From NCBI GenBank assembly GCA_040954595.2, contig CM082593.2:7476043-7540042 (forward strand): 64,000 nucleotides of DNA, in the 5' to 3' direction. The notes beneath the pieces were generated by a model. That model saw nothing but the letters and a program-made list of their open reading frames with translations, searched no databases and was not told the origin of the DNA. This document shows, in pieces, positions 1,323 through 43,834 of the stretch (position 1 is its first letter; each line of letters opens with the position of its first letter). This DNA is from Balanoglossus misakiensis. Lineage: Eukaryota > Animalia > Hemichordata. The translations under genes were made by a program, and so were the position numbers.

Positions 1323-1496
1323 AGTTTATAAAACTTACACGTGTATCGTTACAAAAACGTAACTTACGTTGTATGACCCTGAACGCTACTGGCTTTTGCA
1401 ACACGATCGATCATGATGGATTCATCATATCAAAGTGCGAGAACTTTCAACGAAACATACAGGGTCATATAATAGAATCGAGCGCAATACTTGCGC
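1323..1496 (-). promoter_or_regulatory. Conserved structured 3'UTR module of IL-17 gene 1
   Basis: mRNA sense: GCGCAAGUAUUGCGC (1482-1496); stem 1460-1469/1372-1381; GUUAC-GUUUUU-GUAAC (1348-1363); AGUUU-UAU-AAACU (1323-1335). Confidence 0.8.
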
Positions 1497-1865
1497 GGAT
1501 ATTTTCAAAATAGTAACTTTTGACAAACTTTGTCTAGAAAATAAATATGAACGAACGCTACTTGAAAGGAAAACTTTCAAAAATAAATATAAATAAATAA
1601 ACATATTAGTATGGCTTAATTTACGGACGGAGTTCCATAATTATAAAGCGTAGTGCTACTGAAAGTTTTTTAAACTATTTAAAAGTTAAAAAAAATATGT
1701 TGTATGTTTTAAATATTCCTATATAAAGTTCACAGTTTATGCGAATGCAAAATTGCTTCTATTATTTAAAATAAATATGAAAATGTACTTTTTACTCGGT
1801 TTCCGACTGAATTTGCGGACAGTATTTTTTATCCTACGTATATTTCAAAACCTTAAATTGCAAAT

Positions 1866-2723
1866 TTAAACTCTTTCTCTCCCGCAAGTACAAGCCACTG
1901 CCAGCTTCACTGTGGTCGGTTCGTAGACATAAAACCCGTCAGAGTCACAAGCGCTGGTTTTCACTAAGACTGTCAGGTCAGCCGTGGTTATCTTCTCACA
2001 CCGCCATATTGGATGGTGGTCGCTGTTTTCCAGGAGATCCGTGATGCAGTTCGGACAATCGTAGCACTCGGCTTCAACCAGGGTTTGTGGGTAGCGGTCG
2101 GTATCTGTGTTTTCAACGTGGTAGTAAGGGCAGGTCGATCTGATTTCCAAAGGGGCGTCTGAACCGTAGGAAACCGGGCAGGTGGTCGATGAGGGCGGGC
2201 TGTAGGACCCAGGAGTGGTGGCAAACGAAAGAACATTTGGCGTGTACTGGTTCAGCTGGTCTTGTAAAGCGTCCTCGCTCGGCTGTTGGCAGTTGATTGG
2301 GTTACCATGGATACCACTCATGCTCGAAATGCCCAAAACGATGGCAATCTGGAAAAGATGTGCATTTGTCAGACGTTAACAAATGTTCGTGAACTACATG
2401 TGACAAAGGAAAATAACGCATGGCCAAAAGTCACAATTCTTGTTAAACTCTGCGCCTCTTCTAGTTTCATACAAAGCTTGACTTATTTTACTTGGCTAGC
2501 AACCCGTTGCTACGGTTATATACGAAGTCTCGCGAGATCTCGTAACGACTGGAAAATCATCTCTTGTGTTTATATCAATGATAGTGACTTGTTATACATT
2601 CAGTATTGCGTTATCCATAGATTTGTCAACTGAGCGAATGTATGTGATATTTCCTATAAAGACAACCTGTTGCGTGTGCTGGTCTTATAATATACTTACA
2701 AAGAATCCGTAAGCGCAGTCCAT
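1866..2723 (-). CDS. IL17: IL-17-like cytokine, gene 1 (exon 1 2700-2723 MDCAYGFF; exon 2 1866-2348; 168 aa)
   Basis: RSTCPYY..D.DRYPQTLVEAEC..C..C and C-terminal VACTC match the IL-17 cystine-knot signature (RSxxPW..DxxRYP..AxC..VGCTC). Hydrophobic signal peptide. gtaagt donor and ttttccag acceptor, phase 0. Confidence 0.88.
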
Positions 2724-3079
2724 GATTTTTTTTTAAAAAGATTCAAAGTATCTTAGAACAGTCAGGGAGGTGTCTGGTGATCGAGTGGTCTGTCTGGAAA
2801 CTCACTGTTTGAATTTTTGACATCGATGCTTCCAATTAAATATACTTTTCAGACGGATAATGTTAGATGATGATGTCATCTTTGATTTGCAGGGAAAGCG
2901 TGTATTTATTTCTTGTTTTAATGCAATCGTGGCCATTAATGAGGTATCAAGTACAGTCTATATTTAGAAAATTAGTAAATCTCAGGAAAGTGGTGATTTG
3001 AATATTATCTGTATGAGACAGAAGACACGTCTTGTGTAATTCATTTCCTATCGGTTTATAAATGTACCCAGATACCAGG

Positions 3080-3089
3080 GGGAAATCCC
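3080..3089. promoter_or_regulatory. NF-kB consensus site upstream of gene 1
   Basis: GGGAAATCCC ~360 bp upstream of the ATG; the identical decamer lies at an equivalent position upstream of gene 2. Confidence 0.55.
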
Positions 3090-3295
3090 TGCCATGAGAT
3101 GGCTAGAAGTTGTTCCAAATTTACAAGCTTATCATGTATTTACTGTCTGATAAAATACACTTAATAGTTTGCTTAAGGCTTATGGTGGCCGGTAACAGAA
3201 TACACGTGTGTATTGTAAACACTTCAAAGGACGATATTTTCGACTGGACACTTCCCGCCTAGTCTGTTTTCCGGTTGCCGGTGATTCGACAAAAA

Positions 3296-3370
3296 GCATT
3301 CGTCGCCATGGCAACAGACGTGAGGGTGAATTTCCAATGGAGGATAGTTTACTGCGAGGGTCGTGATTGT
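3296..3370. promoter_or_regulatory. Conserved upstream module (RFX-like CCATGGCAAC, ACGTG, kB-like GGTGAATTTCC, GTCGTGA)
   Basis: Same motif order recurs at 6550-6665 and 11713-11840. Confidence 0.5.
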
Positions 3371-4659
3371 CTGAGGGGTTTAGGGCGCATGAATGGAGGC
3401 AATATTGTATTTTTGACAAAGTGCAGACACAAAGCCGAGAACACCGGGGATTGATAAGGTGGACAGTGACGTTTTGTCATTGACTGGTTTTGTCACGATC
3501 CGAGAAATCAGCGCCGATTGCAGTTGGTTCGACGGCACTGTAGGACTGAAACGTGACCGTGGCACTATTGTAAATCTTGAACCAATAATCCAGGAAGTAT
3601 TTGGAAGTATTTTTCAATAAGCGATACTTCAAGAAGAACAAAGATGTCGTACTCTATACATTCATACGTACGACTCGTTTTGTATTGGCCAAGGCTATAC
3701 ACGACGTTATACAGGGTGTCTATGCGTCCAGCAAGTGTTGTTGTGAATACACTCCCTTAGTAGCCGGTCAAACAGTGACTAGTGAATAGCTGTAACCTTC
3801 CTTTTAATAGAGGAATAACGAAGTTACTTTTGAGAGAGCTCAGTAACTGTTGTCAAATAAAACTCATGAGAAACTGCACATGAAATGTGTTCATAGTACA
3901 ATACCTGTACATCGTACATCTAACGTGTACACGTATACATGAATTTACTGCTGTGGAAGACAAAGGTATCATCTACATTTTACATCTACCTGCACTTTGT
4001 CACAGGAAAGTAAACTGCATGTCAGAGATTGCAACGCGATGTTGTTGTTTACTGGTCCAAAATATGTCATATCACATAAATTCTTGAGAAGCAAACTTGA
4101 TGTGAATTATGCCTCAATTTCAATGAATATTTGATATTTGTCAACTTGGACTTTCATGGTCGTTATTTTGCTTCGTGTTGATTTTGATATGTGTCAGCGA
4201 AACAGGAATTAGTTTGCTTTAATATCGCTCTCTCTCTCTCTCTCTCTTACCAGTCAACTTACGCTCACATCGACTTTTTTTGTAACAAGTTTATTGTATA
4301 ACAAAAATAAAAGCATTAACTTATAAAAAGTTTGGGTAGCTGTACCCTTACAAACGTTATTATAGAAAATAGAAAAGTGCATTATGTATTCTTAATTTTC
4401 CAGCACCAAAGGCTGTGTATTTTACTGTCGTAAAATGTCGCAAAACATAAAAGTAGTTAAGTACCAATGGAAAACTTCATTACATGTGCTTAAAATATTG
4501 TATGGCCGGATATGAAAAGACTTTAATTATTTTGCAAGACTTAAGTTACTTCGAAACTTTACACTTCTTAAAATAAACTGGAAAACATTTTTTAAATATG
4601 TGTGTACATAGTATTTTGATTAAAATAGTATATCCACGTGCAAACAGCGAAGGCTTAAC

Positions 4660-4840
4660 AAGTTTATAAAACTTACACAGCGTTACTAAAACGTAACTGA
4701 CGATACATGACCATAAAGTTTTTTTAACGCGGTACACGTCAACCTGATTGAAACTTTGAGATATAACACCATTGTCCCACCAAGCTGAACGAAAATTGAA
4801 ACGCGAATGGTCATAGTAATATAGAACGCAATACTTGCGT
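4660..4840 (-). promoter_or_regulatory. Conserved structured 3'UTR module of IL-17 gene 2
   Basis: ACGCAAGUAUUGCGU (4826-4840); AUGACCAU/AUGGUCAU stem (4807-4814/4707-4714); GUUAC-GUUUUA-GUAAC (4682-4697); AAGUUU-UAU-AAACUU (4660-4674). Confidence 0.8.
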
Positions 4841-5177
4841 GGGAATCAGAAAAAAATGTAAACTTACACTGAAATAAACTTCCATGTTCTTAAAGTATGG
4901 TATGGCCGGAATAATCGAAATCAAGGTTAAACCTTCAGAAAGTGATGAATATGTAGCATGTTGGGAAACACTTCCACTTAAAAATTCAAATGCAGCGAAT
5001 GTAAACTTTGTTTACGAATTAATATGTTTCTCTATAAGTTAGTTCGATGTGTGAATAGAAATGGTCACGGTTCTCGACATAAAGAATAAAAAAATATATA
5101 ACTGTACTTTGCGTCCAATTTCGGTTAAATAAACACACAATACATTTCTAGATCTTAAATGTTTGGCTTTGAGACAT

Positions 5178-6049
5178 TTAAACTCTTTCTCTTCCACAAG
5201 TACAAGCCACTGCCAGTTTCACTGTGGTCGGTTCGTAGACATAAAACCCGTCAGAGTCACAAGCGCTGGTTTTCACTAAGACTGTCAGGTCAGCCGTGGT
5301 TATCTTCTCACACCGCCATATTGGATGGTGGTCGCTGTTTTCCAGGAGATCCGTGATGCAGTTTTGACAATCGTAGCACTCGGCTTCAACCAGGGTTTGT
5401 GGGTAGCGGTCGGTGTCTGTGTTTTCAACGTGGTAGTAAGGGCAGGTCGATCTGATTTCCAAGGGGGCGCCTGAACCATACGAAATTGGGCAGGTGGTCA
5501 ATGAGGGCGGGCTGTAGGACCCAGGAGTGGTGGCATACGAAAGAACATTTGGCGTGTACTGGTTCAGCTGGTCTTGTAAAGCGTCCTCGCTCGGCTGTTG
5601 ACAGTTGATTGGGTTACCATGGATACCACTGATACACCAGATGCACAAGACGGTAACAGCCTGGAAAAGTAGCATAAATGGGGGGTTAAAAGAGAACAAT
5701 TTGTTTGAACTCAGACAGCTACCGTAATTAACAACAACTAACAACCTAAGACCAGTAGACCTATCTTTCTCACGTTCGTCTCCTTCGGTGTGTATGTGAA
5801 CTGTGGGCGTCTGCAAATGACATCATTTTGATCATTGATATCAAGCGCTTTACGAAGTACTGTATTAGCAGTCTGTGGTATATACTATTATGATTGTGAT
5901 AGGTAAATGACTTCCACCACTTTTAATTGGCAAATTTATGTTATAATTGCCAATCAGTGAAATGCCCCAGAGGTCGGTGTGTATTTGCCGTGCTTTTGGC
6001 TGTTCCCGGGTAAAGTTATACTTACCAAAAGTCCGTAAGCAAAATCCAT
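5178..6049 (-). CDS. IL17: IL-17-like cytokine, gene 2 (exon 1 6026-6049 MDFAYGLL; exon 2 5178-5660; 168 aa)
   Basis: Near-identical mature region to gene 1. Exon 1 is homologous to gene 1 exon 1. Canonical GT-AG, phase 0. Confidence 0.88.
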
Positions 6050-6398
6050 TTTCAGATAAATCTGTGGCGTTTATGGAGAGGCGTTTGTGGATAGAATAGA
6101 GTTGAGGATTTTTGGCGTTTGAATTGAACATGGTTGCGCGGAATTAAATATACTTTGCGGGCTGATAAGATTGGCTTATGATTTCATCCTTAATTTACCA
6201 GGAAAACTCGGGTTTACTTCTTTTTTTTTAAATTCCATCATAAACGTTAGTCGTTCATGTTGTATTACACCTATATTTAGAGCGTTAGTGAATTCAAGAG
6301 GGGGGGGGGTATAATTTGGATATTTTCTACCAATGATAGGGGACGCATTTTGTGTTACGTAATGTTTGTCAAAGAACAAATCGCAGTCATACTTTACT

Positions 6399-6408
6399 GG
6401 GAAATCCC
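6399..6408. promoter_or_regulatory. NF-kB consensus site upstream of gene 2
   Basis: GGGAAATCCC ~350 bp upstream of the ATG. Confidence 0.55.
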
Positions 6409-6549
6409 TAGAAGTAATCTCAAACAAGTTAGCATCTCATACGCTGCTTGTCTGTGTGATCAACGATTGCTGTCCATTGTACACACTTCCAAAAAGGTAT
6501 TTTCAGCTGGGCGCTTCCGCATGTTTTGATTCCCTGTATCCGTCAACAA

Positions 6550-6665
6550 AGCTTCGCCGCCATGGCAACACACGTGGGGGTTGGTTTTCCAGTGAACTTC
6601 GACGGAAGGAGTGTTGGATATTTCGCAAGTCGTGACTTTCGGGGGCGTCTGACGACAATAGAAGG
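6550..6665. promoter_or_regulatory. Conserved upstream module of gene 2
   Basis: CGCCATGGCAAC-ACGTG...TTTTCC...GACGGAAG...GTCGTGACTTTC...ACAATAGAA, homologous to 3296-3370 and 11713-11840. Confidence 0.5.
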
Positions 6666-7119
6666 GAAACAATAGCGGCGGCTTGAATTGTCAAACAGTG
6701 GTCCGCAACCAGGTGTAACGGTTACTATTCAATTCGAGTTTCTTGGTACATGAATGCGGTTTCTCGGTACGTATACTGAGTAGTTGTGACTGAAAATACC
6801 TAAAGGAACCTGATACAATTTCTTGATTGACCAAATTGTTGAACAGGGCCACCACTGGGAAGGTAATTATAGATGGTTCAATGTTTATGATATCAGCTTA
6901 ATAAACAACCCGAATTGGAAGTTTAACGCGGATATGTTGTGTAGAATTAGCCAGCGCGTCGGAATGTAATTGTGTTTGTAAGTTCGTCATAACGGCAACC
7001 GTTACCACTTGAATCAATGCAGTTAACCTTGTATTTCTTTTGTAAATTGACAGTTACTTCCCGTTTTCCCTCCAGGTTATACGATTAGACACACTATTAA
7101 CTGAGAAAACGTATACCAG

Positions 7120-7241
7120 TTACGTACGTACGTACATACATGTACATACATACATACATACATGCATACATACATACATACATACATACATACATACATA
7201 CATACATACACACACATACATACCTACATACCTACATACCT

Positions 7242-7329
<88 letters not shown>

Positions 7330-7345
7330 ACAGACAGACATACAG
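7120..7345. repeat. Compound microsatellite (TACG)n(TACA)n(CA)n(CAGA)n
   Basis: Directly visible. Confidence 0.95.
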
Positions 7346-9042
7346 CACACATAAACGATTCGGCAAACCATTTTAAATTTCTTATAACAAACAACAAACT
7401 CGCAAATACATTTTACAGTGTACCACTTCCCCCTTCCAATCGATAAGCTCGAACCTATCATGAAAAGAAATGGGTCTAATATTAACAGCCTGCATTAACG
7501 CGCTGTTCTCAAATCTTGTACGGTTGAAGCCTGCTTTGGCTTCTGGCTTTGATATGTAAAATACATGTGTGTTTTTTTGCGGTGCAGTCGATGTGCAAAA
7601 TACTAAATGAGTAAAGTAGTGACTAAGACAACCGCCCATTTGACCACGAGTCCTGTCAGAACAAAAGATTTCGACTATAGGTCCATGAATGTCAATGCCA
7701 TGGACCACAAATGTACTACATCGAGAGTTGGCCGTCAAATACACGAAGTCTGTTGTATGTACGTATGTGCGATAGGTGGGTATTCTGGGCTTATTTAGCT
7801 CTTAGGTGAGCATTTAGATCGGTGTAGTGAACAGTGAGTATAGCGTTGATCTAATATAAAACATCCGCTTCCTTTAAATAGAGAAGTACCTGAGTCTATC
7901 CGTATCGAGCGTTCCTGCAATAAAATGCTGAGCGGCAAATTTTACTGCAAATACCAAATAGTTGAAATTTTCACGCACTGTTTTTATGATACCACGGTGA
8001 CATTTTTACTGTACTACATGCGGAAGGTGTGTAGATAAAATTAATTGGCGTTTAGCAAGTTAACTTCCACAGAAAGTACATGTGATTGACATAGGTTGCC
8101 CATTGGATAATATCCCTTGCCGTTTTGAGATTTGCAGATTTTGGTGTTGTTAGTCCTTCCATGGATGAAACCAAGTCACATCCATCGCGGTCTCTGAATA
8201 CGTATTAGAAGTTTACAAGATCAAACTACACATACGCCAAACAAGAAATGAACAAGGCAAACACAAACAAACAAGATGCATGGTCAAATCTATTAAAGAC
8301 AGGGCGAGTAAGGTGAAGTTTCAAGGGTGTAAGCATTTAGTCTTGTCCCGCATGTGTGGGACCCGACATATTTCGAACTCAGACTATCCTTAACAGTTTT
8401 TGTGGCTATATATAAACTATTCAATCAGCATGCGTACGTAACATTTATATGCTGACCTCCGGTGTCATTTTAACACATACGTCTTCCGCTTTTCGATCTA
8501 GTGGTATGCATTTTTAGGCCATATTGAATCACGCGAAATCTTAATCACGCCATATTGAATCACGCGAAATCACGCCAAATTACGCGAGACTTCGAAATAA
8601 CGTTACGCGTTCTTTTTGAGCCTAAACGTTTAACCACAACAAGACTACCAACTCATATCGTCTCTTTTTGTAAAATAAACATTTTATTATGGTAATATCA
8701 CTACAAAAAATAAATGTTGTACTTCGGGTATCATAGCATACCGTGAAAACATTACAATATAAAATCAATAAGTTGCAAGTGGATACATGACTGGTGTGAA
8801 ACAGAATAATTAATATAAGGTTCCTTTAGACTCTGGAATACTTTGTTATCCCTTGAGTTTTTATTTTGCCATCTCAGCATAACCCTACTGCTAAAAATCT
8901 CAATTTGCCATAAATAAGGCGCTGAAAATAAAGATTCAATAAAATTAAAATAACTAATTAAAGTCTGAATTCAGTGGAAATCTAGTAAAAGGAATAAGTA
9001 TGTAGTTTGTTTTAAGAAGAGTTCAAACAGCGTAAGACGTAA

Positions 9043-9217
9043 TAAGTTTATAAAACTTACATCGACGTTACTTAAACGTAACTGACTTAATATGATCCCA
9101 AATCTAGCAGTTTGTTTGGAACACGGTGGAATTTACGTGTCTTTCCACGAAGCAATTGTACTTTCAAACGAAGCAGATTGGATCATATACAGTAAATTTG
9201 AACGCAATACTTGCGTT
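9043..9217 (-). promoter_or_regulatory. Conserved structured 3'UTR module of IL-17 gene 3
   Basis: AACGCAAGUAUUGCGUU (9201-9217); AUAUGAUCC/GGAUCAUAU (9180-9188/9090-9098); GUUAC-GUUUAA-GUAAC (9067-9082); UAAGUUU-UAU-AAACUUA (9043-9059). Confidence 0.8.
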
Positions 9218-9408
9218 GGTATTGTCAAAGTATTAAAAAATACATACAAAATGAATAAATAAAACAATAAATATTTAAGTTAGGGTATAAGATAGAAATA
9301 AACAGGTAAATAGTTTGCAATACTTCTCATCAGTCTCGTAAATTGATAATGTGGTCGTGGCTAAACTTGTGAACGATGACATTTTGGTTTTCTTGTATTA
9401 GAAAGGCT

Positions 9409-10131
9409 TTAAACTCTTTCTCTCCCGCAAGTACACGCCACTGCCAGTTTCACTGTGGTCGGTTCGTAGACATAAAACCCGTCAGAGTCACAAGCGCTGG
9501 TTTTCACTAAGACTGTCAGGTCAGCCGTGGTTATCTTCTCACACCGCCATATTGGATGGTGGTCGCTGCTTTCCAGGAGATCCGTGATGCAGTTCTGACA
9601 ATCGTAGCACTCGGCTTCAACCAGGGTTTGTGGGTAGCGGTCAGTGTCTTTGTTTTCAACGTGGTAGTAAGGGCAGGTCGATCTGATTTCCAAAGGGGCG
9701 CCTGAACCGTAGGAAACCGGGCAGGTGGTCGATGAGGGCGGGCTGTAGGACCCAGGAGTGGTGGCATACGAAAGAACATTTGGCGTGTACTGGTTCAGCT
9801 GGTCTTGTAAAGCGTCCTCGCTCGGCTGTTGGCAGTTGACTGGGTTACCATGGATACTGCCGATAACAGAAATGAGGACGATAGCTGCAACCTGTAGAGA
9901 GACAAATTTCATGAGTAAATCGAGATAGTATACAAAAACTCAATGGGTATCATTTGTGACATTTCGCAAACTAGTTTTTAGTGCAACGCAAGGCGATCTG
10001 GATTGTCAGATACTAGCGACAATGTTAAGTAACCTGTTTGAAAGAAACGCATTGTATGATATACAATTTCGCAATCTGTTATAAGTTATGTCGAAAATCT
10101 AACTTACTGAAATTCTGTAAATAAAATTCAT
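9409..10131 (-). CDS. IL17: IL-17-like cytokine, gene 3 (exon 1 10108-10131 MNFIYRIS; exon 2 9409-9891; 168 aa)
   Basis: IL-17 signature. gtaagt donor and ctctacag acceptor. TATATATA at 10231-10238, ~100 bp upstream of the ATG. Confidence 0.88.
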
Positions 10132-11712
10132 GATGTTATATTCTTCTGGTAATGTTCTTCCTACGTCCAGATTTCTCGAGGAGAGCTTGGATTTTGCGAG
10201 TATGGTTAAAGTTACTTGGTGATCGTTGACTATATATACGCTCCATCTTCGTGTAAACTTGAGTGATGAGATAACGCAAAAAAGTTTAGGGAAAAATCGA
10301 AAATTCACAAGAGTTCATCTTGACCCTATGTGTTATCTTGGCCAGTTACATCACATTCTATATTTAGATTTCAAGTGTGTAAGGAAGGCCTTAGAATATC
10401 TCAATCAATCATGTGTATATAAAGCCCATTCATGTATTTGCCAGTCGTTATGCTTCCAAAAGACACACACCCATTTTATTCTTAGGGAAGATCTTAAATG
10501 TCCGTTCAAGAAAGCAATACTCAAACTGAATGCAATATAAAGCATGTTTGTTAACCTGTTCAGTGTTTGTGAAGGATTTCGAATACTATACACTACCGTT
10601 CCATTGCTGCGGGAAATAGCCCAAGTATTTGTATTGGTATATATTTCTCGTCACACACTTCCGCAGGCCTTATCAATGATACGTCGTCATCTGTAGTTGT
10701 CACAAAGGTCAATTGGCTGATAGTGGAAACGTTTAACGTGGCTGGCTATTACCCGTGGACACAGTCTCCTTGAAGTTTGCGCTGTAGTTAACATTTCAAT
10801 AAAGATATATAAGTATAGGATCAGAAAAAATGTTTCCATGGACACCATACGAAACCAGTGGCTGAATCGAAGTCTGGTCTAGTCTAGCCACATAAGAGGA
10901 CAGTATAGCTGTAACTTTTAGCCCTTTCTCAGTGTCAAGCTAGGTCGTTCGTTGATCGTAGAACTTGTGCTACTTCTGTTTAATCTTAAATGCATGATAG
11001 TATTCTGTTTGTCAGAACATGGTGTATATATGAAATTACCAGTGCTAAGGCTGACCTCAATGGCACGTACACACAAGCTGTGTCGACATGCTAATTACTA
11101 CATAGTTCATCGTACTCAGTCTAGGGAGTCGAACAAACTTTGGTTTTGATGCACAGAAGAAAAAATACTCGTTTGTTTGTTGTGTTCAAAAATACAATAC
11201 ACAACAACAAACAATAAATCGTGCAAGGATAACACAGAAAAATGCGAAGACTTATTTCCACTGAGCATGCTCAAATGAATCCAGTTGCTGGGTATTTTAT
11301 TTAAAAATAGAACTTCAAGTACAAGGTAAACAGACGTACTTTGTACATGCGAGATCAAGTGGTTTTGGAATTCGGTCGGGGCACGATTCGTATGTATTTT
11401 GAACTTGAGCTATTAATCATTGACCATAAACTTACTCTGTGTTTGGCTTCCGTGTGATGGTGGAGTATTCCTTATATTATATAAGTCTATATTGTCTAAA
11501 ATCTACCAATTTGTGTTTGAAGGACAAAGTTGCGTTACACAGGCAATAGGCTTACACCATCTTTTTCCGTCTGCACTGATCACATGTAAAGACCACACGA
11601 ACAAGGAATAGTTTGTACGAAAAAGGTTTATTTTTCCCAGAATTTTGAATTAAATACCCATGCGGACTCCACAAGCTACCTCAAAAGCAAGCTACAGCTT
11701 CCCTGTTGTTTT

Positions 11713-11840
11713 GTTTCCATGGAAATTTCAAACGTCACACGGAACTGCTCATCGCGGCAGTACGTGGGAGGAATCTCCAACGACGGAAGTTTTCACTCTT
11801 CACGCGTCGTGACTTTCCATAGCCGCTTTATTACAATAGA
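11713..11840. promoter_or_regulatory. Third copy of the upstream module, between divergent genes 3 and 4
   Basis: GTTTCCATGGAAA...ACGTGGGAGGAATCTCC..GACGGAAG...GTCGTGACTTTCC...ACAATAGAA. Confidence 0.5.
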
Positions 11841-13772
11841 ATGAGATCATCTCATTGTTCGACGATGCTTTCTGTTGTTATTAGTGGTTGCCTGGTGCCA
11901 GTACAGGGTTCCTTTGTAGTCGGTGCATTCCGAGAGCAGAATGGAAGATCAGTCATTCGAGAGAGCGCCTCCACCGACAGATCTCCACGCTCTGCAGCAA
12001 GACTGTGTAAATACTATGCGAATTAGCATAGTCGACCAAAGTACATGTAGTTGCTTAAAGAGCCGTCGAACGTCCTGTCTGATAATGTATTTGACAATTA
12101 ATGATATTGGCGACCGACTTCAAGGACGTTTGCGGAATTATGATTACAGAGTTTGCTGTCAGGGTCCGAGACCAATCATAGTAGGCCTATAGAGGAGGTT
12201 TAGTTACCGCAAAATGTATGGTTTGATCCACATACCTCCGAGTATTAGAGACTGTGTCATGTTATTCCACTATTTCGACGAATTCACAGAATTTCTGAGC
12301 TATGTAATTACATCAAAGCACAGTTACTCTGTGAACAAACTATCTGTGGTAATATGACAAGCAGTAGTTTAGTTTCAAAGAAGCAGCGTTTCGTTCCCTC
12401 ATCCGCAGTTGTTCGTCGAATCCGTGTTATTTGTGTACAAAAAGTAATCTCGCCCAACCCTAGACATACATGTATATATCAATACACGTAATTCACTTGT
12501 CAAGAGTTAATCACACCATGAAAAGGCTTCCGTAAAGCTACCTATGATCTACGTAAGAGAATATTGCATAATGAGAATAATAAATTTAAAATGGCGTCCA
12601 CTCAAACAGTGGAACGCCGCAGCGTAGCAACCGGTGACGGAGCCGGACTTCCGCCAATAATATAGGAACTTGACAAGCCCATGTTTACATACATCGAAGT
12701 CCATTTATTAATCCCTTGATCTCGCATCACAACTTTCATGATTTGTTAGTTTGTTTGTTTTTCTTCCGCATATGCTCAATGTTCACACAGTAAAACAATA
12801 TCAAAACACCATTAAAATGTCACCATTTAATATTAGTAGACACGACTACACATAACTTTTTGTAGTACTTAAAAAACAACTATGCCGAATTTTTTTTTTT
12901 CGTTGTAGCTTTCAGATCTTTTGTCAGCGATTTGTGTACACTAACATTTTGAAGATCTAATATTAGGAGTATAACATACAATTGTTCTCAAGCTTTATAT
13001 CTGAACGACAACGTGCATTTTCTCTAGAAAACACATTTCGATTTTATTCAGCACAGTCACAGACATACTGATATCTGTACGAATAACTGTTAACATTGTG
13101 AGTTTAAACGCCAATTTTTTTCTCCAGTCACGACATACAGATATATCCTTCATCAACTACCTGTGGAATAACCGAGCCTACTACGTACCGATTTATCTGT
13201 CGTGTATCGCTGATAGGAGTGCCCCGACAATCTCAACCCAATGACCTTTCATGATAAGCGGACATTCAGTTGTACGCTAGTTAATAAAACCAGCGGAAGT
13301 ACCTATCCGGATATACCCCATTTAATGGATTGATGAAAAAGACGGACTTCCTAGTGTTTGAAACGTTTCACGACCTTCTCCATTTTGACGAAGTCGTTCT
13401 CTTTCCCACACTTTTGCATGGTAAAAGTTTGAATGGGTTTTCAAAACAGCTACTAATTGGCCCGGCTTAACCCCATAGTGATATATAGCCCTGCCGTACC
13501 CAAACGCTCAGACGGAGGTTCAAAGTTTCCCCCAGGTATACAGGTATTCTAAAAATAGTCGTGATGTAACTGGTCGGAGATTTTTTATGGGGTGGAAGCT
13601 GTACCCAGCTTTCTGATTTTTCCCGAAAAACTTCGGCATTAGTTCATCATCCACTATGGTTGCAAACCGACATCGTCTATATAATCCACCGTCGAGTTCG
13701 TATGATAATAGACACCGCCATAAACGCAGAAAATAAACGTCATCCCGAGATTCGCCTGAAGAACATTCAAAC

Positions 13773-14703
13773 ATGGAATTTTTGTACCGATCATCAGTAA
13801 GTCATAATTACCGGCTAATGCTAAATGTTAACGCTTCTTGTGTTTTTGTGTGTGAGAGAGTGTGTTGTGGATTGGCCGGTTTAGTATGTTTCGGCCAATC
13901 TCAAACTCTGCGTTAAAATCTAGAACCTATAACAAGAATGTATGTCTTTCGTGGAAAACACTGGAAAAGGGAATTAAGTTCATTCAGTTTTACTTGCCGT
14001 TAAATCAGCTATAGTTTCCAGAACAGGACCACTAACTTGTCAGAAACAGAATCATAATTGAGCTGGCAATATAGTTTAATGCATCTGTGACAGTCTATTT
14101 TGTCTCAAATACCGAAGACATCTTCTGTTTTGATTGTTAGCGTCATGAGGATAGGTTTATATCTTTTAACATTTACACAAGTCACCTCATTATTAACAAA
14201 AAGAATTGTTCTGTCTACAGGTTGCAGCTATCTTCCTCATTTCTGTTATCGACAGTATCCATGGTAACCCAATCAACTGCCAACAGCCGAGCGAGGATGC
14301 TTTACAAGAGCAGCTGAACCAGTACACGCCAAATGTTCTTTCGTATGCCACCACTCCTGGGTCCTACAGCCCGCCCTCATCGACCACCTGCCCAATTTCG
14401 TATGGTTCAGGCGCCCCCTTGGAAATCAGATCGACCTGCCCTTACTACCACGTTGAAAACACAGACACCGACCGCTACCCACAAACCCTGGTTGAAGCCG
14501 AGTGCTACGATTGTCCGAACTGCATCACGGATCTCCTGGAAAGCAGCGACCACCATCCAATATGGCGGTGTGAGAAGATAACCACGGCTGACCTGACAGT
14601 CTTAGTGAAAACCAGCGCTTGTGACTCTGACGGGTTTTATGTCTACGAACCGACCACAGTGAAGCTGGCAGTGGCTTGTACTTGCGGGAGAGAAAGAGTT
14701 TAA
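13773..14703 (+). CDS. IL17: IL-17-like cytokine, gene 4 (exon 1 13773-13796 MEFLYRSS; exon 2 14221-14703; 168 aa)
   Basis: IL-17 signature. aaacATGG start, gtaagt donor, gtctacag acceptor. TATATAA at 13678-13684; AATAAA at 15308-15313. Confidence 0.88.
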
Positions 14704-14870
14704 ATGTAATGGCGGCATTTGTCGGTATAGTAAACACATACAAAATAATTAATACATTCTGTACGGTAAGGCGATCGGGTACTTAAAAAAAAACTAGCGT
14801 CTCACTAATTCATATTTGGTCAGTATATGTTTTCTTTGTATCTAGAAAACGATAACATCCCAAATGTTTG

Positions 14871-14970
14871 TACTTATTTATTATTTATGAATTTATTTAA
14901 AATTATTGTGTTTGAAAAACTACACAAACAAAACATTTACAACATTGTACAATTATTTATTTATTTATAA
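14871..14970 (+). promoter_or_regulatory. AU-rich elements (clustered AUUUA) in the gene 4 3'UTR
   Basis: ttatttattatttatgaatttatttaa and ttatttatttatttataa. A similar tract lies on the - strand at 1581-1600 (gene 1). Confidence 0.55.
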
Positions 14971-15070
14971 AATGTAATGTTCGTAGGTAGAATCGCATTT
15001 TGATGTCGAAATTAAGTTTTTTATGTATTAAGTTTTTAGAAATATTAATATTGTTATTTTGTCAATCCAC

Positions 15071-15203
15071 GCGCAAGTATTGCGTAAATATTGCCATTTG
15101 ATTCTAGCCGAATGACATTTACTGGTTAAACCAAAAAAGTGTTCGTCCAGGGTCATGGAGTGTCAGTTACGTTTTAGTGACATTTATGTCAGTTTTAAAA
15201 ACT
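15071..15203 (+). promoter_or_regulatory. Conserved structured 3'UTR module of IL-17 gene 4
   Basis: GCGCAAGUAUUGCGU (15071-15085); AUGAC..GUCAU (15112-15116/15152-15156); GUUAC-GUUUUA-GUGAC (15166-15181); AGUUU-UAA-AAACU (15191-15203). The module is inverted together with the gene. Confidence 0.8.
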
Positions 15204-15384
15204 CAATTTGCAGTTACACTCTTTGAGAGCTTTCCGATAAGTGTTAAGAAGTTTATATTTTTTGAAACCATTTCTAGTGAAATACATTATGAACTTGTTT
15301 TTATTTAAATAAACTTAAGAAAAGATACTATACCTATTGAAAATTTTTGTTCATTTTATTAAGATTACGTCATATGACAAAAGT

Positions 15385-35907: not shown

Positions 35908-36027
35908 TACATACATACATACATACATACATACATACATACATACATACATACATACATACATACATACATACATACATACATACATACATACATACAT
36001 ACATACATACATACATACATACATACA
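35905..36027. repeat. (ACAT)n microsatellite fused to the right end of the satellite
   Basis: About 30 perfect tetramers, directly visible. Confidence 0.95.
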
Positions 36028-36105
36028 ATACATAACTTCAAATATTTTATTGCGTAGAAATTTAAGGCGCGACATTGTAATTTATTTTGCTTATGTTATC
36101 TGTAC

Positions 36106-36249
36106 AGTTTTTAAAACTTACGAAGATAGATGTCACGAAAACGTAACTGACAATGTATGACCCAGGCAGTACATTTATGTCGACCAAGCGATCGAATAAT
36201 TCATTTACTATTGAGTCATATATATAAACTTGAACGCATTACTTGCGTT
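36106..36249 (-). promoter_or_regulatory. Conserved structured 3'UTR module of IL-17 gene 5
   Basis: AACGCA-AGUAA-UGCGUU (36233-36249); UAUGACUCA/UGGGUCAUA (36212-36220/36156-36164); GUUAC-GUUUUC-GUGAC (36132-36147); AGUUU-UAA-AAACU (36106-36118). Confidence 0.8.
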
Positions 36250-36514
36250 GGAGTCATCAAAAAGTGTAATGTTTAAGTTTAACAGTGCAAATAGAGCGTT
36301 TGAAGATACTTTGCTATAGTAGAATGCAAGTTTTGATGATATAGAAAAACATAAATATTGAATTTATGTATTTTTGTATTCTCACTTCACATATCTGTAT
36401 ATCTTGTATGTTCCTGAGGCTTGAAAATGCAATTAGTATATAAGCTTTTTTCTGTTTATATGACAGTTCTGAAAATATTCACTCTATGTCTTTCTATCCA
36501 ATCAATGTTAACTT

Positions 36515-37837
36515 TTACACTCGCTCTCGTCCACAGGTACAAGCCACTGCCAGTTTCACTGTGGTAGGTTCGTAGACATAAAACCCGTCAGAGTCACAAG
36601 CGCTGGTTTTCACTAAGACGGTCAGGTCAGCCGTGGTTATCTTCTCACACCGCCATATTGGATGGAAGTCGGTGCTTTCTATCAGATCAGCAACGCAGTT
36701 CTGGCAGCTGTAGCACTCGGCTTCTACCAGGGTCGGTGGGTATCGCTCCGTGTCCGTGTTTTCCACTCTGTAGAACGGGCAAGTTGTTCGGATCTCCAAG
36801 GGGGCGCCCTGGCCGTAAGAAACCGGGCAGGTGGTCGATGAGGGCGCGCTGTATGAGCCGGGCGTTGCAGCGAACGAGAGGGCGTTTGGCACGTGCTGTT
36901 TCAACTGTGCGCGCAGGGCATCCGCGCTCGGTTGTAGGCAGTTCACCGGGTTGCCATGGATACCAATGATGTTAGAGATGCCAATAACGACAATCTGTAA
37001 AATAAAAACAATATGTGTATTTGAATTGTAACCCTGAAAAAGTGTATATTTGAAAATTAACTCTAAACATACATCATTACATGTTGACAGGCTAATTTAA
37101 ATAATTTGGTTCGCTCATAAAACGCCCTATAGGTTTAAGTCTGGCTGGGTTCAAGGGTTGATGATGATTCTTATCAATTTGCGCGTATATTAATACGATA
37201 GCATAATTTATAGACGTACCATAGATTACGTCACACGCTTCTTGTTTGCCGAGTTTCAACGATTAGAATACATGAATTATTGTTACACATCCTTGAACAA
37301 CTTCAAACAGGAACGAAAATGTCAAAAAGATAGAGACTGTCCTATATCTTGAAGTACGCGTCTCGAAAATCGTAGTCTTTGACGACGTTTCCTCATAATT
37401 TGCTCAAAGAAGCTTTAGATTATTTTCTCTGAGAATGAGAATTAAAAATAGGGGAGCCAAATTGACATAAATTTGAAATGGTGGCCAATCTCTGCGTTAA
37501 CTCTATACAGAAAAACTACAAGTGGTGTTTTTATGAAACCATGTTTTCTACTGTGATTTCAAAAAGACTAGTACTCCTCACACACTTTGATATAGCAAAG
37601 AATTGAAAGGTTTGGAGAACTATAGTTTTTAGCCTGCTGGTTGTAATGATTTCGATCAAGAAAATTTAGCTAATAATACAGGGAATATAAATAATTAAAA
37701 TAGTATAAAATTTACGGCTACTTTTCCTCTAAGACCCAGATTAATTGTGTAAACTTTTCTGTGGATTTCGTCATGATTTCTTATTAACAGGAACGTTTGA
37801 TACTCACCAAGGATAAAATTCTGCTTGCAAACTTCAT
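36515..37837 (-). CDS. IL17: IL-17-like cytokine, gene 5 (exon 1 37808-37837 MKFASRILSL; exon 2 36515-36994; 169 aa)
   Basis: More diverged paralog with all 10 mature Cys. gtgagt donor and ttttacag acceptor. TATATAAA at 37934-37941. Confidence 0.88.
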
Positions 37838-39595
37838 GTTGAAACGGGTCGTGTTAATTAAAGTTGTGTAGAGAGATCTAAGATGCGTTTGCTGCTTCGA
37901 CTGTATCTGACTTTCTAACTTGCAAGGGACACATTTATATAGGTTGCTGGTGTACCAGATTAGTTCATGATTGCGATCTGTAATCTCAAGGAAAATTGGG
38001 GAAAGGAACGGGCGAATCCGCGTTCTTAGTTTCCTTCTTCGTTTTTTTCACCTTGATCGATACCACTGTTTGTAGACGTTCTAAAAATAGACCATGAGTG
38101 TTCTCTGGAACGGTGACGCTTTGGACGTCGTTACCGGCAACAAGGTCATAAAGCATGAATTCCGTGTCCTTTGTAATCATTCTGAGACATTATTGTCACT
38201 GTAAAGTGGTTACTGACAGCTTACAAGGTTCAGCCGTGTGACCCCGTTGTTTGTATTATAACTGTCTGTGTAGCAGAGGTCCGGGAGTGTTGTTGACACC
38301 TTCAAAGAAGGGGCGGTAATTTCTATTCAAACACTTCTGCATGATACGTCTGTCTGTCTACCTAACACAATCACTGATGACATTTATGGTTGGTGATATC
38401 AATGCACAGATTAAACACTACCACGAGTAAGGCGGGAACCCACCACGGCGCAAAACTGTCAAGACAGGAAGGGTTATCAGCCAAGTGTTTTGCTCGGTTC
38501 TTTTGCAGCACTGAGCGAAGCGCCTATATCTGTGACCCTTCTTGTAGAACACATACCCACTAAGAATAATTAGAATATACCCTAGGTCATTTGATAGTAT
38601 TCGATTTTTTACTGGAAATTCGCTAACCATATTTAAATTCCTCTGCATTCGGGCACCAGACAATAACACAAGTCAATCTTTTATCCACGCGGGTAGTAAT
38701 ATTTCTTCAGTAATCAACCGTGATGTTTACACTGCATATTTCTGAATCACCATAATTATTCTGAAGACACGGAAATAAAGATGAGGGACGACAAAAGAGT
38801 TTTTCCTGGTAAAATACAAAGACATAACGTGATGCACACCTTGTTTAATACCCGGATCTTGACCATCAACTTCCACATTTTTTCGAAGTTTCGGACAAGG
38901 ACGTGGGATTTCCGAGCAATTAATGTGATGGCCAAGCAAGAATAGCATTTCGCTCGATCACAATATTAGAACTTTGATTTTGTAGCGCATATACTAGTAT
39001 ATGGGACTACCCAGGCTGATCATATAGTGCAGTGCATGGTTATCATATTACATAGCCTTACTGTGAGAATTTTGAGAAAACACATGCAATATTGTCATTT
39101 TCTTAATTTTTTCACACAAAGCGCCGAAAGAGGGGGTTTAATGTAAATGATATAAAGAAAACACTATGTCCCGGGATTGATTTGTTCACCATAGGAAAAC
39201 TATACTCGGGGTATAATGAGTGCAAGGAAAGTGCTGACTCAACATTTCCACAATATTAAGGATCCGTGGCTCAGTCATGTATTTTGAGGTCATTTTGGAT
39301 GACGTCTCTATAGGTGTAAATGGGTACCACGAGCCCAATGACCCGAATATTCAGTCCGGTCGGATAACCGGAAAGACAAACACACACCTGTGTTGGCGTT
39401 ATATATTTTATTCCGTCTATTAAAAACGCAATTGCAACGAACATAGATCATTTAACTTAATTGTGAGTAACACAAAATTTACATTCATTCTGGGTTAAAG
39501 TCTGCTTAATCTCCGCCGTGTTAAAAGAATAAGTCTACGCTACAATTACGTAAACTTACATTAAATTATATTTGTCATTTATACTGACTGTGTTC

Positions 39596-39793
39596 AAGTT
39601 TATGAAACTTACATTGATGTTACGAAAACGCAACCACCACGCACATTATGACCAATAACCGACGAAAATGTCGGTCACATTTGACTAGGCGGGCCTTGTA
39701 TGTATACCTGTGGTTGAATAATTCCAAATCGAAAACACACACTTCGTTTCGTGCCGCCTGGGTCATATAAACAGTGAGTGCAATACTTGCACT
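39596..39793 (-). promoter_or_regulatory. Conserved structured 3'UTR module of IL-17 gene 6
   Basis: AGUGCAAGUAUUGCACU (39777-39793); UAUGACC/GGUCAUA (39761-39767/39647-39653); GUUGC-GUUUUC-GUAAC (39619-39634); AAGUUU-CAU-AAACUU (39596-39610). Confidence 0.8.
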
Positions 39794-40378
39794 TTGCTCA
39801 ATATAAAGGTTGTATATAATGTTTCTGTCGCAAAAATAAATATATTGCGGATATCGCGAACGATCTTCCCTTGGAAACATGCGCGCAGAAGTTGACGAGC
39901 ATGCGCAGTTACATGACTGCTCTGCTCTTTGTAGTACTCTATAAGGTTCTTGCATTCTTTGTGGAATCGACTTTTATAAAAAAAAGTAAATAAAATGTAC
40001 TCCTATGATAATGAGATATGTTACAGATGTATCGTCTTCAGGATCGACATTGTACTCTTGTTGTATGAAAACTCATTATTATAAGTTAAATATACATAAA
40101 TATTATCAAAGGTACTTGGTGATTTGCTGTAATGAACTTTGTGCAAGGCGTCACGGTATTTTGCGGTGTTCTTTTGTCGCACGTGTAATGTTGCAAGATT
40201 GCGCAGGAAGGGCGGTGACTTGTGTACTTCATAGCGGAAAATGTTCAGACGACAGTTACTGTACCATGTGGCCTACATCAAGCGTAAATGACGTCATTTT
40301 GCCTATAAATAAAACTTTTAGGATATTCGCCCAGCTTTGCAATATTTTTCCGTTTATGTAAACTTTGTACAACTTCAT

Positions 40379-41458
40379 CTACACCCTTTCTCGTCCACAA
40401 GTACACGCCAATGCAAGTTTCACTGTGGTCGGTTCGTAGACATAAAACCCTTCGGAGTCACAGTCTTTGGTTTTCTCCAAAACTGTCAAGTCGCCCGTGG
40501 TTATCGTCTCACACCGCCATATTGGATGGTAGTCGCTGTGTTCGATGAGATCGGTGACGCACTTCCGGCAGTCGTAGCACTCGGCTTCAACCAGGGTTTG
40601 CGGGTAGCGGTCATCGTCTGTGTTTTCAACGTGGTAGTACGGACAGGTCGATCTGATTTCCAACGGAGCCCCCGAACCGTACGAGAGAGGGCAGGCGGTC
40701 GACGAGGGCGGGCTGTAGGTCCCCGCAGTGGCGGCGTAAGAGTGGGCATTCGGTGTGTATTGGTTCAACTGCGCGCGAAGAGCGTCCTGACTCGGCTGTT
40801 GGCACTTTGTTGGGTTGCCATGGATACCGACTATGCTACACATGATGGCAAACTGTAACGAAGAAGATAACAGCAAATATTACTACAAATTTCAGTCTTC
40901 ACATTAAAATATGTTTCCATGTACTGGGCGATCGAACGATTTGAATTTGCAAAATAAACCTGACGAAAACTTAGCAAACGTATAAATGTGAAGGTGATTT
41001 TTAGCTTTCTGTAAATGAGAGTACAGTATTTTTTGTTTCTCATCGTAAGGCTTATGACAAGTTTGTCATCTGGTAGGAAAATGGACATCTTATAGACGTT
41101 GGAATTACATGTACACCAATCAATCCAAAAAGGACAACAATAATAATCATGGAAAAAATAACCCAGCTCGGATGCACTGAGCTGTTGAGTGGCCATAGAT
41201 TTTCAAAGAGGGAACTTGAGTCTTTAAAATATTTCCACCACGTCCGCTTTCACGTTTTAAACTGGTGTGGAAGCATCTGTTAATCAGATTTCGAAAATTC
41301 GAACATGTGTCCGATGTACGTAGCCTTAGAGCCTTACTTTCCTAATTTTTCTGACATCTTCAACAAATGTTCGCTTTTTTCAGGCTGAAAGGGGGGATCT
41401 CATCGGCGCATGCGTGCACTGAGCTCTAACTCACCAGACAACTGTACGTGATTTCCAT
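40379..41458 (-). CDS. IL17: IL-17-like cytokine, gene 6 (exon 1 41435-41458 MEITYSCL; exon 2 40379-40852; 165 aa)
   Basis: IL-17 signature. gtgagt donor and cgttacag acceptor, phase 0. Confidence 0.87.
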
Positions 41459-43275
41459 GTCTAAATATGAATGACTTCTTCGCTGTGGTAATAGTATGAG
41501 TTACGTCCAGGAGTCGTGGTTGTCTAACTTGTGTTTGAATATCAAACTGCCTACCCCATTCTTATATTCCTGATCGAGCCTGTATCTTTAGGCTGTGAGC
41601 TCATTATTGTGGAGAATATTTTTAAAAAAAATCAGGGAAAAGAGGCAAAATCTAGGCGAGATGTCCACGCTAATTTTGCGACTCGGTAATCCGGTCTATA
41701 ATTAGCATGTGAATGGGTGCGGGAAATGATATTTTGAACCCGAGCTATCTGCACCAGCAAGACTTTAACCCCTTCGACCCGCGAGCCGCGCTAACTCCCT
41801 TCTGCTACACACATACACACCTGTTCAACTTAAACTTCTAAATTCTTGTTCAAATATCGTTAAAAGCATATGCATATGTAATTATCGGTCACGTAGTTCC
41901 ACATATTCCGCATACAAATCAAAAACATTCCTATTGTATAAGGATATCTAGGAACTAATCAAGAATTTGGAAGTTGAATTAATTATTTTTTTCGTTTAGT
42001 TCTAAATATAGGGTACTTCCCCGTACATCGCCCATCATGTAGACAAGGCACTATAATTATGTTCTATATTTTGTCCAATTTTACCTGGAAAGTTTTAATC
42101 ATCAGTGACCTGGTACCTTTGCAAGTAGTTGAAAAGTATACGCCTAGACAAATGTTGCCATTGAATGTTGAGATTTTTCCAATCACAGTTTTTCACTTGG
42201 GTGGCCACGCGAAAAAGTGTGCCGCCACGCGATCACACGATGGTAGACACGCCCTTCAACCACATTGAGGGCATACGTATGTTGGGGGGTCTGCATTCAT
42301 GTTGTATTGTCGTATGTTCTTTTGGACAATTTAAAACTATTGCTTGAGGACACTACATGTTGTCATGCCAACAGACTGAATTGTTACTTGGCAGATCTAC
42401 GCTCATAATCTACATTTTGACTTTTGACCGTTAGGTCGTGTAGGCCTATAACTGTGCGAAGCTTTTTTTCGGTATGCGACTTCCTCAAACACTGTATTCA
42501 CACGGAACTCGCCTATGAAGCGTGTAATGCCTGTATGCGTCGCTAATCATTGACAAAGAAGTCGTGATCGACTGATGTGAGTAGGTAGGACTGCAATGAC
42601 GTAACTTCTCTGATACGTAACATAACTTGCGTCCCCATGAAGTGCTTGCGTCATATTAACAGTGTGTGGGAAGAGTGACGTCAGAGATGGCGGTGATTCA
42701 TCATGGTGTAGTCAAGGAGAGAACAACATCATGAAAACAACACGTGGGTGCGGAACAAGAACAAAACCGTACCAAAAGCAGATTCAAGATGGCGATTTCT
42801 CGTGCCAGGAAATAACCAATCTCAAATGAAAGATACTCTAAAATTGGCAACAACAATTTTATGCTCTTTCAGCCCGAGTTCCGCAATATTCACACTTCCC
42901 AACAATGTATGTTCTAAACATCTTCGGGGTGGACTGTCCACTGTCACGGCACCCTGAATTGTAAATGTGGGTGTCGTGTTAGTATGATATTGGTCAAATA
43001 TGCACAACAAAGAATAAATGTCACATGAATGTGTCAAATCCTTTTTTTAAAAGAGGGACGTATTTACAAGTTTTTTCTTCACGATTTAGGGGAATTCAAG
43101 TTGGCTTTATGCTCGACATTACCAGACCAGTGAGAATTGGCCAAAGTCGCCGCGTACTTGAATAAAGAGATGGAGATCGGTAACAATTTTACAGGTTGTA
43201 TGTCTTTATTAATAAATATGTTTGAAGTATTTATAAATATATAAGTTAAATTTCAGTAGATAAAATAACTACGTC

Positions 43276-43325
43276 AAGTTTATAAAACTTACTGTGACGT
43301 TACAGAACGTAACTGACTAAGTATG
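43276..43325 (-). promoter_or_regulatory. Truncated 3'UTR module of IL-17 gene 7 (last two hairpins only)
   Basis: GUUAC-GUUCU-GUAAC (43299-43313); AAGUUU-UAU-AAACUU (43276-43290). Confidence 0.72.
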
Positions 43326-43834
43326 GAGGGCCTTAACAAATTAGTTGTCGACAGCCGTTTCATTTGGTTTTCTTTCTGAAATCTTGGACAAAAAAGCACA
43401 GTTACCATCTTCAAACGTTATCTTTCGCCGTTCTTTTTTTTTCATTGTCCTACTTGCTGTCCTGTCGGATCCTCTCAGCATCGCCTTCACCACGGCAACC
43501 ATTATGTCATGTCGTTTACAAACAAGCAGGATACAGAAAATTCTGACGACCAGAATTGCAGAACGTCTCAGAAAAAAAATTCTCAAGTGGATTAAATTTA
43601 CCCCTGTGGGGCTAATATCTATAGGAATATAAATAAATTTAGACTGTAAAAGTAGCGCTTATTTTCGTTACTAGTTTCTCTTTCCGTCTCTGATATGTAT
43701 GATACCAGCGCCATTTTCTTCTAGTTGAAGGGCACATTCCTGCATCTGAACTTTTAAACGATTGAATGTCACCTTGAGCTGATTTCTGTGTGTTGAATCA
43801 CTCTGTTGCAAACACTTCAGTTTCCACCTCACGT

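Follow-up and report, generated by a model that had tools for sequence, protein, structure and literature searches.

A conserved module in the probable 3'UTRs of neighboring IL-17 genes

We analyzed a 64-kb stretch of DNA from the acorn worm Balanoglossus misakiensis (contig CM082593.2, positions 7,476,043 to 7,540,042 of the forward strand; hereafter the window) that contains seven intact two-exon IL-17 genes. Our focus is a module of four putative RNA structures, termed A, B, C and D, that recurs in the presumed 3' untranslated regions (3'UTRs) of these genes and is a candidate mRNA decay element. The evidence comes from sequence analysis of this one locus in one species.

All seven IL-17 genes have a first coding exon of 24-30 nt spliced to exon 2, giving frames of 165-169 amino acids (aa) that end in TAA or TAG and have hydrophobic N-termini (signal peptides were judged by eye). 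The Pfam IL17 domain (PF06083) scored above cut-off in all three copies scanned, and a protein search found two relatives among 44 candidates, both from acorn worms (Ptychodera flava, 70%; Glandiceps talaboti, 53%). Gene 4 is inverted relative to the other copies. The coding spans are as follows.

1866..2723, minus strand: IL-17 gene 1 (exon 1 2700-2723, exon 2 1866-2348; 168 aa)
5178..6049, minus strand: IL-17 gene 2 (exon 1 6026-6049, exon 2 5178-5660; 168 aa)
9409..10131, minus strand: IL-17 gene 3 (exon 1 10108-10131, exon 2 9409-9891; 168 aa)
13773..14703, plus strand: IL-17 gene 4, inverted (exon 1 13773-13796, exon 2 14221-14703; 168 aa)
36515..37837, minus strand: IL-17 gene 5 (exon 1 37808-37837, exon 2 36515-36994; 169 aa)
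40379..41458, minus strand: IL-17 gene 6 (exon 1 41435-41458, exon 2 40379-40852; 165 aa)
43835..44884, minus strand: IL-17 gene 7 (exon 1 44861-44884, exon 2 43835-44314; 167 aa)

Motifs A, B, C and D follow one another in this order on the coding strand of genes 1-6, and all seven sites listed in an earlier reading of this DNA (the original prediction) were located, including the site that flips with the inverted gene 4 and lies on the plus strand there. The module begins 193-587 nt and ends 364-782 nt 3' of the stop codon, which corrects the earlier estimate of ~270-780 nt. Spacing within the module is 13-17 nt from A to B and, in five of six copies, 10 nt from B to C.

1323..1496, minus strand: module 1; A 1482-1496; B arms 1463-1469 and 1372-1378; C 1348-1363 (GUUUUU); D 1323-1335 (UAU, 5 bp); first AATAAA 1165-1170
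4661..4840, minus strand: module 2; A 4826-4840; B arms 4809-4815 and 4706-4712; C 4682-4697 (GUUUUA); D 4661-4673 (UAU, 6 bp plus wobbles); first AATAAA 4290-4295
9045..9216, minus strand: module 3; A 9202-9216; B arms 9181-9187 and 9091-9097; C 9067-9082 (GUUUAA); D 9045-9057 (UAU, 7 bp); first AATAAA 8860-8865
15071..15203, plus strand: module 4; A 15071-15085; B arms 15097-15103 and 15151-15157 (weakest, several G-U); C 15166-15181 (GUUUUA); D 15191-15203 (UAA, 5 bp); first AATAAA 15308-15313
36106..36248, minus strand: module 5; A 36234-36248 (pentaloop); B arms 36214-36220 and 36156-36162; C 36132-36147 (GUUUUC); D 36106-36118 (UAA, 5 bp); first AATAAA 36081-36086
39597..39792, minus strand: module 6; A 39778-39792 (double change C-G to U-A); B arms 39761-39767 and 39647-39653; C 39619-39634 (GUUUUC); D 39597-39609 (CAU, 6 bp); first AATAAA 39407-39412
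43277..43313, minus strand: partial module 7; C 43299-43313 (pentaloop GUUCU); D 43277-43289 (UAU, 6 bp); first AATAAA 43205-43210
43451..43457, minus strand: A remnant of gene 7, likely a decayed 5' arm plus loop with the 3' arm lost; its distance to C is 144 nt, against 93-156 nt in genes 1-6

Hairpin A had been drawn as a CGCA-AGUAU-UGCG pentaloop, a form that we find in gene 5 alone; the other five of six copies are better described by a 6-bp stem with a GUA triloop. B is a stem of 7-10 bp around a free, structured interior. Gene 7, predicted to carry only C and D, does carry both and, where A would be expected from the spacing, also has what is likely its decayed remnant: seven bases from the 5' end of A persist, as does CATAC of the 3' B arm, in register. 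Gene 7 has thus likely lost A and B, and this loss indicates that the A+B and C+D halves are separable.

Specificity of the module

We built covariance models for A and for C+D and searched both strands of the window with filters off. The training copies match these models by construction, so the informative part of the search is the absence of others. The six training copies of A scored at least 41.8 bits against 12.8 for the next best match (a gap of ~29 bits), and the seven of C+D at least 59.9 bits against 13.1 (a gap of ~47 bits). Together with a pattern scan, the models identified no further module copy outside the IL-17 UTRs within the window. The A-then-B pattern occurs six times there and in none of 100 shuffles. 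A comparison of the seven UTRs likewise ranked D, the leader of C, and A as the most shared 13-mers (3, 4 and 8 summed mismatches), with 13-16 summed mismatches in 12 shuffled sets and 15 in intron and upstream DNA.

Several candidates were set aside. The scans also picked up two loose resemblances to A (60415 and 60961), one to C (986) and one to D (1662), none of which is a module copy, and an outer stem enclosing A and B is present in some copies only. Across the whole window, Rfam families (iron-responsive element (IRE), selenocysteine insertion sequence (SECIS), histone stem-loop and others) gave no match at the gathering score; IRE, SECIS, Smaug and histone stem-loop readings were dropped on that basis and by eye against their consensus sequences. 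A metagenome pattern scan for C+D returned one match, which lies within a phage-like reading frame, lacks the stems and is ascribed to chance. Viral contigs contained no match to the C pattern, and a protein search there gave one weak match at 23%. A literature search on five motif strings returned one unrelated bacterial paper, and A and B matched nothing there or in Rfam.

Motifs persist in old, drifted flanks

A comparison of the paralogs places the module in DNA that has otherwise diverged. Over their last 450 coding bases, genes 1-4 agree at 96-98% of positions; this near-identity covers exon 2 from the start of the mature peptide to the stop codon, and introns and UTRs are unalignable. 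Immediately past the stop codon, in the first bin of 15 nt, identity among these genes is down to 0.26-0.29 from 0.90-1.0, in agreement with the prediction that the 3'UTRs are otherwise unalignable. Synonymous divergence (dS) is 0.04-0.11 among genes 1-4 and 0.3-0.94 versus genes 5-7, and every gene pair has a nonsynonymous divergence (dN) between about one tenth and one half of its dS. Introns do not align between copies (z -1.3 to 2.1); for the initial 180 nt of the UTR, z ranges from -2.6 to 3.4, and three of the 21 pairs come close to 3. The signal-peptide part groups gene 1 with gene 2 and gene 3 with gene 4; an exon-2 tree left all four inner branches open and was not used. Exon-limited gene conversion between old duplicates is likely the simplest reading of genes 1-4. 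Module blocks, by contrast with the near-identical exons, are 0.56-0.77 identical whether dS is 0.04 or 0.94. Because exon 2 is near-identical yet its flanks are unalignable, and because block identity is independent of dS, the motifs appear to be selected footprints in old, otherwise drifted DNA.

The module as a probable RNA structure of the 3'UTR

The anchored helices comprise 174 base-pair cells, with 153 Watson-Crick, 12 G-U, 0 A-C and 9 other combinations, the last mostly at helix ends. A G-U pair on the mRNA strand is an A-C mismatch on the opposite strand; the 12 G-U against 0 A-C on the sense strand thus represent a strand asymmetry and uphold the claim that these pairs work only in mRNA sense, with the reservation that helix ends were picked on the sense strand, which biases the G-U count (inner columns hold 6 of the 12). 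Double compensatory changes are found in two columns of A, where the covariation score was reached by 16 of 500 shuffles (a lenient control), and in three columns of B, across 55-115 enclosed bases. The B interiors are unrelated in sequence, and all six fold better than arm-preserving shuffles (z -0.9 to -2.2). Both A and B are predicted to form in the isolated module (P 0.8-1.0); with 100 nt of flank, the predicted P of B drops to 0.04 in gene 4 and 0.17 in gene 6.

Placement relative to polyadenylation signals provides a further line of evidence. The prediction that the module precedes AATAAA held in every gene: the interval from stop codon to D, 3,673 nt over all genes, contains no AATAAA and no ATTAAA, against 4.0-4.6 AATAAA expected (P about 0.01-0.02). 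The opposite strand of the same 3,673 nt contains 20 signals, and the first AATAAA lies 19-365 nt past D in each gene. TATAAA occurs inside D in genes 1, 2, 3 and 7. Judging from AATAAA placement, the module is very probably included in the mRNA. Covariation in A and B, the G-U strand asymmetry and the poly(A)-signal placement together give good support to the view that selection maintains the module as an RNA structure within the 3'UTR.

Hairpin D and, in part, hairpin C resemble Roquin target elements

Roquin/Regnase stem-loop decay is central to restraining mammalian inflammation. In published work, the strict constitutive decay element (CDE) has a pyrimidine-purine-U (YRU) triloop, and tetraloops and pentaloops are unbound (PMC11609897); a relaxed CDE has a 6-8 bp stem and a YRN loop (N, any base), with 5-bp stems less active (PMC6294493). 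Alternative decay element (ADE) loops have invariant U2-U3, with values of 6 nM for GUUUUA, 39 nM for GUUUAA and 111 nM for AUUUUC in structured RNA Bind-n-Seq (sRBNS; PMC11609897).

Hairpin D fits the CDE-like category. Its loop is UAU in genes 1, 2, 3 and 7, CAU in gene 6 and UAA in genes 4 and 5, with U or C at position 1, an invariant A at position 2 and U or A at position 3. The relaxed YRN rule therefore covers all seven loops and the strict YRU rule five; the pyrimidine-purine-pyrimidine (YRY) triloop rule of Regnase-1, whose targets have this loop on a stem of 3-7 bp and which the original prediction had applied to D throughout, also fits five of seven, failing at the UAA loops, and does not fit A (GUA). 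With Watson-Crick stems of 5, 6, 7, 5, 5, 6 and 6 bp in genes 1-7, D shows the full relaxed CDE consensus in four copies (genes 2, 3, 6 and 7).

Hairpin C seems partly ADE-like and is not a consensus ADE. The GUUUUA loop predicted for it is present in genes 2 and 4, and the other five copies differ: GUUUAA in gene 3, GUUUUU in gene 1, GUUUUC in genes 5 and 6, and a GUUCU pentaloop in gene 7. Positions 2-3 are UU in all seven. Three loops (genes 2, 3 and 4) belong to the published sRBNS-enriched ADE set; GUUUUU, GUUUUC (twice) and GUUCU are absent from the main-text sRBNS loop list. The C stem contains one G-U in genes 4, 5 and 6. In our analysis, the best argument for assigning C and D to Roquin is that their loops change at tolerated positions. 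The Roquin reading proposed earlier thus fits the D loop in seven copies, the D stem in four and the C loop in three; it does not extend to the C stem or to the closed or pentaloop C of genes 1, 5, 6 and 7, and gene 5 has no element satisfying strict mammalian rules.

Additional hairpins and motifs accompany some copies. Within B of gene 6 lies a hairpin that the other copies lack:

39655..39678, minus strand: 9-bp stem with an AUUUUC hexaloop, a published ADE variant

This hairpin has both an ADE loop and a stem of at least 6 bp, a combination with 0.4 hits expected by chance in the seven UTRs. Gene 1 contains two extra all-AU hairpins of 7 bp with relaxed-CDE (YRN) loops, at about 1854-1870 and 1668-1684 on the minus strand, one of which overlaps the stop codon. 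Nonamers of AU-rich elements lie upstream of the module in genes 1, 3 and 4 (1, 1 and 3 copies), and the gene 5 UTR contains one AUUUA. The sequence GU(C/A)AGUU stands 5' of both C and D in most copies, as if one hairpin had derived from the other or both carried a leader that is read by sequence.

A number of observations weigh against a Roquin-bound structure, the strongest being the short C stem and the closure of its loop. The C stem is 5 bp in all copies, below the 6 bp that published searches for ADEs required, and C of genes 1, 5 and 6 is predicted to close to a UUUU tetraloop (P 0.68-0.97); these tetraloops and the gene 7 pentaloop are of sizes that the mammalian ROQ domain rejected in sRBNS. 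The D stem is 5 bp in genes 1, 4 and 5, a length that lowers activity. The stems of C and D are nearly invariant though Roquin reportedly has no stem-sequence preference, and a conserved unpaired GUCA leader precedes C; invariant stems are also reported for Nfkbid SL1 (PMC6145892) and NFKBIZ SL4. In A, the sense loop GUA is not a Roquin loop, and it is the antisense hairpin, with a UAC triloop, that agrees with the relaxed CDE in four copies (1482-1496, 4826-4840, 9202-9216 and 39778-39792). The compensatory changes noted earlier for the stems in general are confined to A and B, with no double-sided change in the 12 columns of C and D counted. Folding is modest: whole-module z is -1.3 to -3.9, and 0.16 in gene 7; antisense folds are equally stable in genes 1, 3 and 7; C and D of gene 4 fold poorly in local context (P 0.06-0.07; 0.11 and 0.36 in a second prediction), as does D of genes 6 and 7 (0.58 and 0.24; second prediction 0.04 and 0.00). 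Finally, the weaker signals AGTAAA and TATAAA lie upstream of D in genes 1, 4, 5 and 6.

A proposed composite decay element and its relatives

Taking these observations together, our analysis makes it reasonably likely that the module is a composite Roquin/Regnase-type decay element of IL-17 mRNA, and about equally so that repression operates through Roquin and/or Regnase at C and D. The module would fold in the 3'UTR of the message, where the CDE-like D, together with C in copies whose hexaloop does not close, would recruit the single invertebrate Roquin through its ROQ domain. Docked Roquin would trigger deadenylation, and A and B would act as an upstream spacing-dependent helper or as a Regnase cleavage domain, so that a pro-inflammatory cytokine message is kept short-lived. 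One Roquin gene is retained in invertebrates, according to a source passage that does not name hemichordates (PMC11172303), and sea-urchin IL17-1 messages are described as peaking at 4 h and being down by 8 h (PMC5457136).

Composite elements of this type are already known, and four of them provide parallels. The mouse Ox40 element similarly has a U-rich hexaloop hairpin followed by a YRN triloop hairpin, in ADE-then-CDE order, with more structure upstream (PMC9023295). It differs in having an extended bulged helix where the acorn-worm C has a 5-bp stem (and a loop that fits the ADE in three of seven copies), in having no stated counterpart of A and B, and in its host, which here is an invertebrate cytokine gene.

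The NFKBIZ translational silencing element/TNU is likewise a multi-hairpin unit of ~180 nt, with upstream stems at fixed spacing and downstream UAU triloops (PMC5934641; bioRxiv 2025.09.19.677199). Its Regnase-1 cleavage core is reportedly set by stem position and not by loop sequence, with help from the downstream UAU hairpins (bioRxiv 2025.09.19.677199). Compared by description and not by sequence, it starts at the stop codon and has short hairpins, whereas the IL-17 module starts 193-587 nt past that codon and has one long stem whose interior is free. The tight A-B and B-C spacing would suit a geometry-dependent unit like the NFKBIZ core.

The six-stem-loop element of Nfkbid combines cooperative ADE-like and CDE hairpins, some of them sequence-invariant, and shares the AUUUUC loop found within B of gene 6 (PMC6145892); all its hairpins were studied as Roquin-related, whereas A and B lack Roquin-type loops. 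An invertebrate precedent is the 3'UTR of C. elegans ets-4, where an ADE and an adjacent non-ADE hairpin act jointly via RLE-1/Roquin and REGE-1/Regnase, and both the ADE and the REGE-1 cleavage hairpin (RCE) are required (PMC9371910). That element has two hairpins, no CDE in its description, and a transcription factor as its target (PMC9371910). It is by analogy with the NFKBIZ core and ets-4 that we tentatively propose A+B as a helper or cleavage domain. Our analysis makes a Regnase-cleavage role of A+B, taken by itself, rather unlikely. More broadly, we tentatively suggest that A+B is an undescribed spacing-dependent RNA element, either serving a Roquin/Regnase unit as its core for cleavage or licensing or being read by another protein, and coupled to an ADE-CDE tandem on invertebrate IL-17. 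A literature search that covered few subscription papers, and that included papers on invertebrate IL-17, found no such module or stem-loop decay element on invertebrate IL-17.

Alternative explanations

The module could instead be a structured 3'UTR element with another reader or another outcome, such as stabilization, translation control, localization or 3'-end processing. The reader could, for example, be an Arid5a-like or Act1 SEFIR-like stem-loop binder. All the RNA-level evidence fits this possibility equally, A and B match no Roquin rule, C matches in three of seven copies, and the sequence of the stems and of the GUCA leader is conserved. Hemichordates are reported to have Act1 homologs (PMC5457136). 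A role in 3'-end processing would draw on the overlap of D with a weak poly(A) signal variant (TATAAA; genes 1, 2, 3 and 7) and on a 5'-splice-site-like hexamer before D in six of seven copies, but in most copies the GU conserved ahead of D can form a basal stem. Since the loop substitutions in C and D follow the published ROQ tolerance pattern, and a hexaloop followed 8-13 nt later by a YRN triloop is the Ox40 layout, we regard another reader as an unlikely explanation.

An improbable alternative is that the module acts as DNA, as a downstream enhancer with clustered transcription-factor sites whose palindromes mimic hairpins. bZIP factor sites are commonly palindromic, CAGTTAC of C is also present in a promoter motif of genes 3, 4 and 7, and non-coding DNA motifs are conserved upstream of the genes as well. 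Double changes across the 55-115 nt enclosed by B and 12 G-U against 0 A-C on the mRNA strand nevertheless argue for RNA, and the module keeps a fixed orientation to the gene and always lies 5' of the first AATAAA.

It is very improbable that the module has no function and reflects residual homology, or brief conversion tracts, within a tandem family. Exon 2 of genes 1-4 is clearly subject to conversion, which makes short tracts conceivable, and A and B are missing from gene 7; the blocks, at 7-16 nt and with spacers of variable length, are nevertheless too short to seed conversion, changes within blocks preserve pairing, and block identity does not track dS. No less remote is a dispersed repeat or miniature transposon with the B arms as terminal inverted repeats: the arms are indeed short inverted repeats with TA at their outer ends in most copies, but no copy lies outside the IL-17 UTRs in the 64 kb, the 55-115 nt B interiors are unrelated, and A, C and D fall outside the arms.

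Possible implications for the history of stem-loop decay

When ADEs and CDEs originated is described as open, with progenitor examples lacking (PMC11730611). If the preferred reading of a composite decay element is true, an ADE-like and CDE-like tandem on the cytokine gene of an invertebrate deuterostome would date such control before vertebrates, and composite stem-loop control of cytokine messages would predate both vertebrates and adaptive immunity. The locus offers near-identical proteins with an allelic series of loops (strong, weak and absent) and one natural deletion of A+B, in gene 7, across seven paralogs. The binding rules and the role of A and B are thus directly testable in reporter assays. 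This arrangement suggests that it is chiefly their promoters and the stability of their messages that set apart paralogs with homogenized coding sequences.

Other features of the locus

Upstream of genes 1 and 2, we observe a common 10-nt motif (3080-3089 and 6399-6408) that we take to be a kappa-B-like site and a common palindrome (3305-3315 and 6559-6569) that is presumably X-box-like. An 11-nt motif is common to the upstream DNA of genes 3, 4 and 7 (10342-10352, 13563-13573 and 45269-45279) and resembles a composite bZIP/Myb site; its CAGTTAC recurs in hairpin C on the other strand.

A 20-kb satellite of ~229 units of 88 bp, with apparent higher-order structure, occupies 15383-35907 between the 3' ends of the convergent genes 4 and 5 and begins ~70 nt past the AATAAA of gene 4. 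An open frame at 51503-52042 on the plus strand has no Pfam hit; its atlas look-alikes score 0.91, with low recognition, and 23-46% of their members contain TRADD-like N-terminal domains, making the frame a possible exon of an immune adaptor gene beside the IL-17 cluster. The window also contains a 40-bp tandem array of 13.5 copies at 47467-48011 and a 143-bp imperfect palindrome at 46873-47015.

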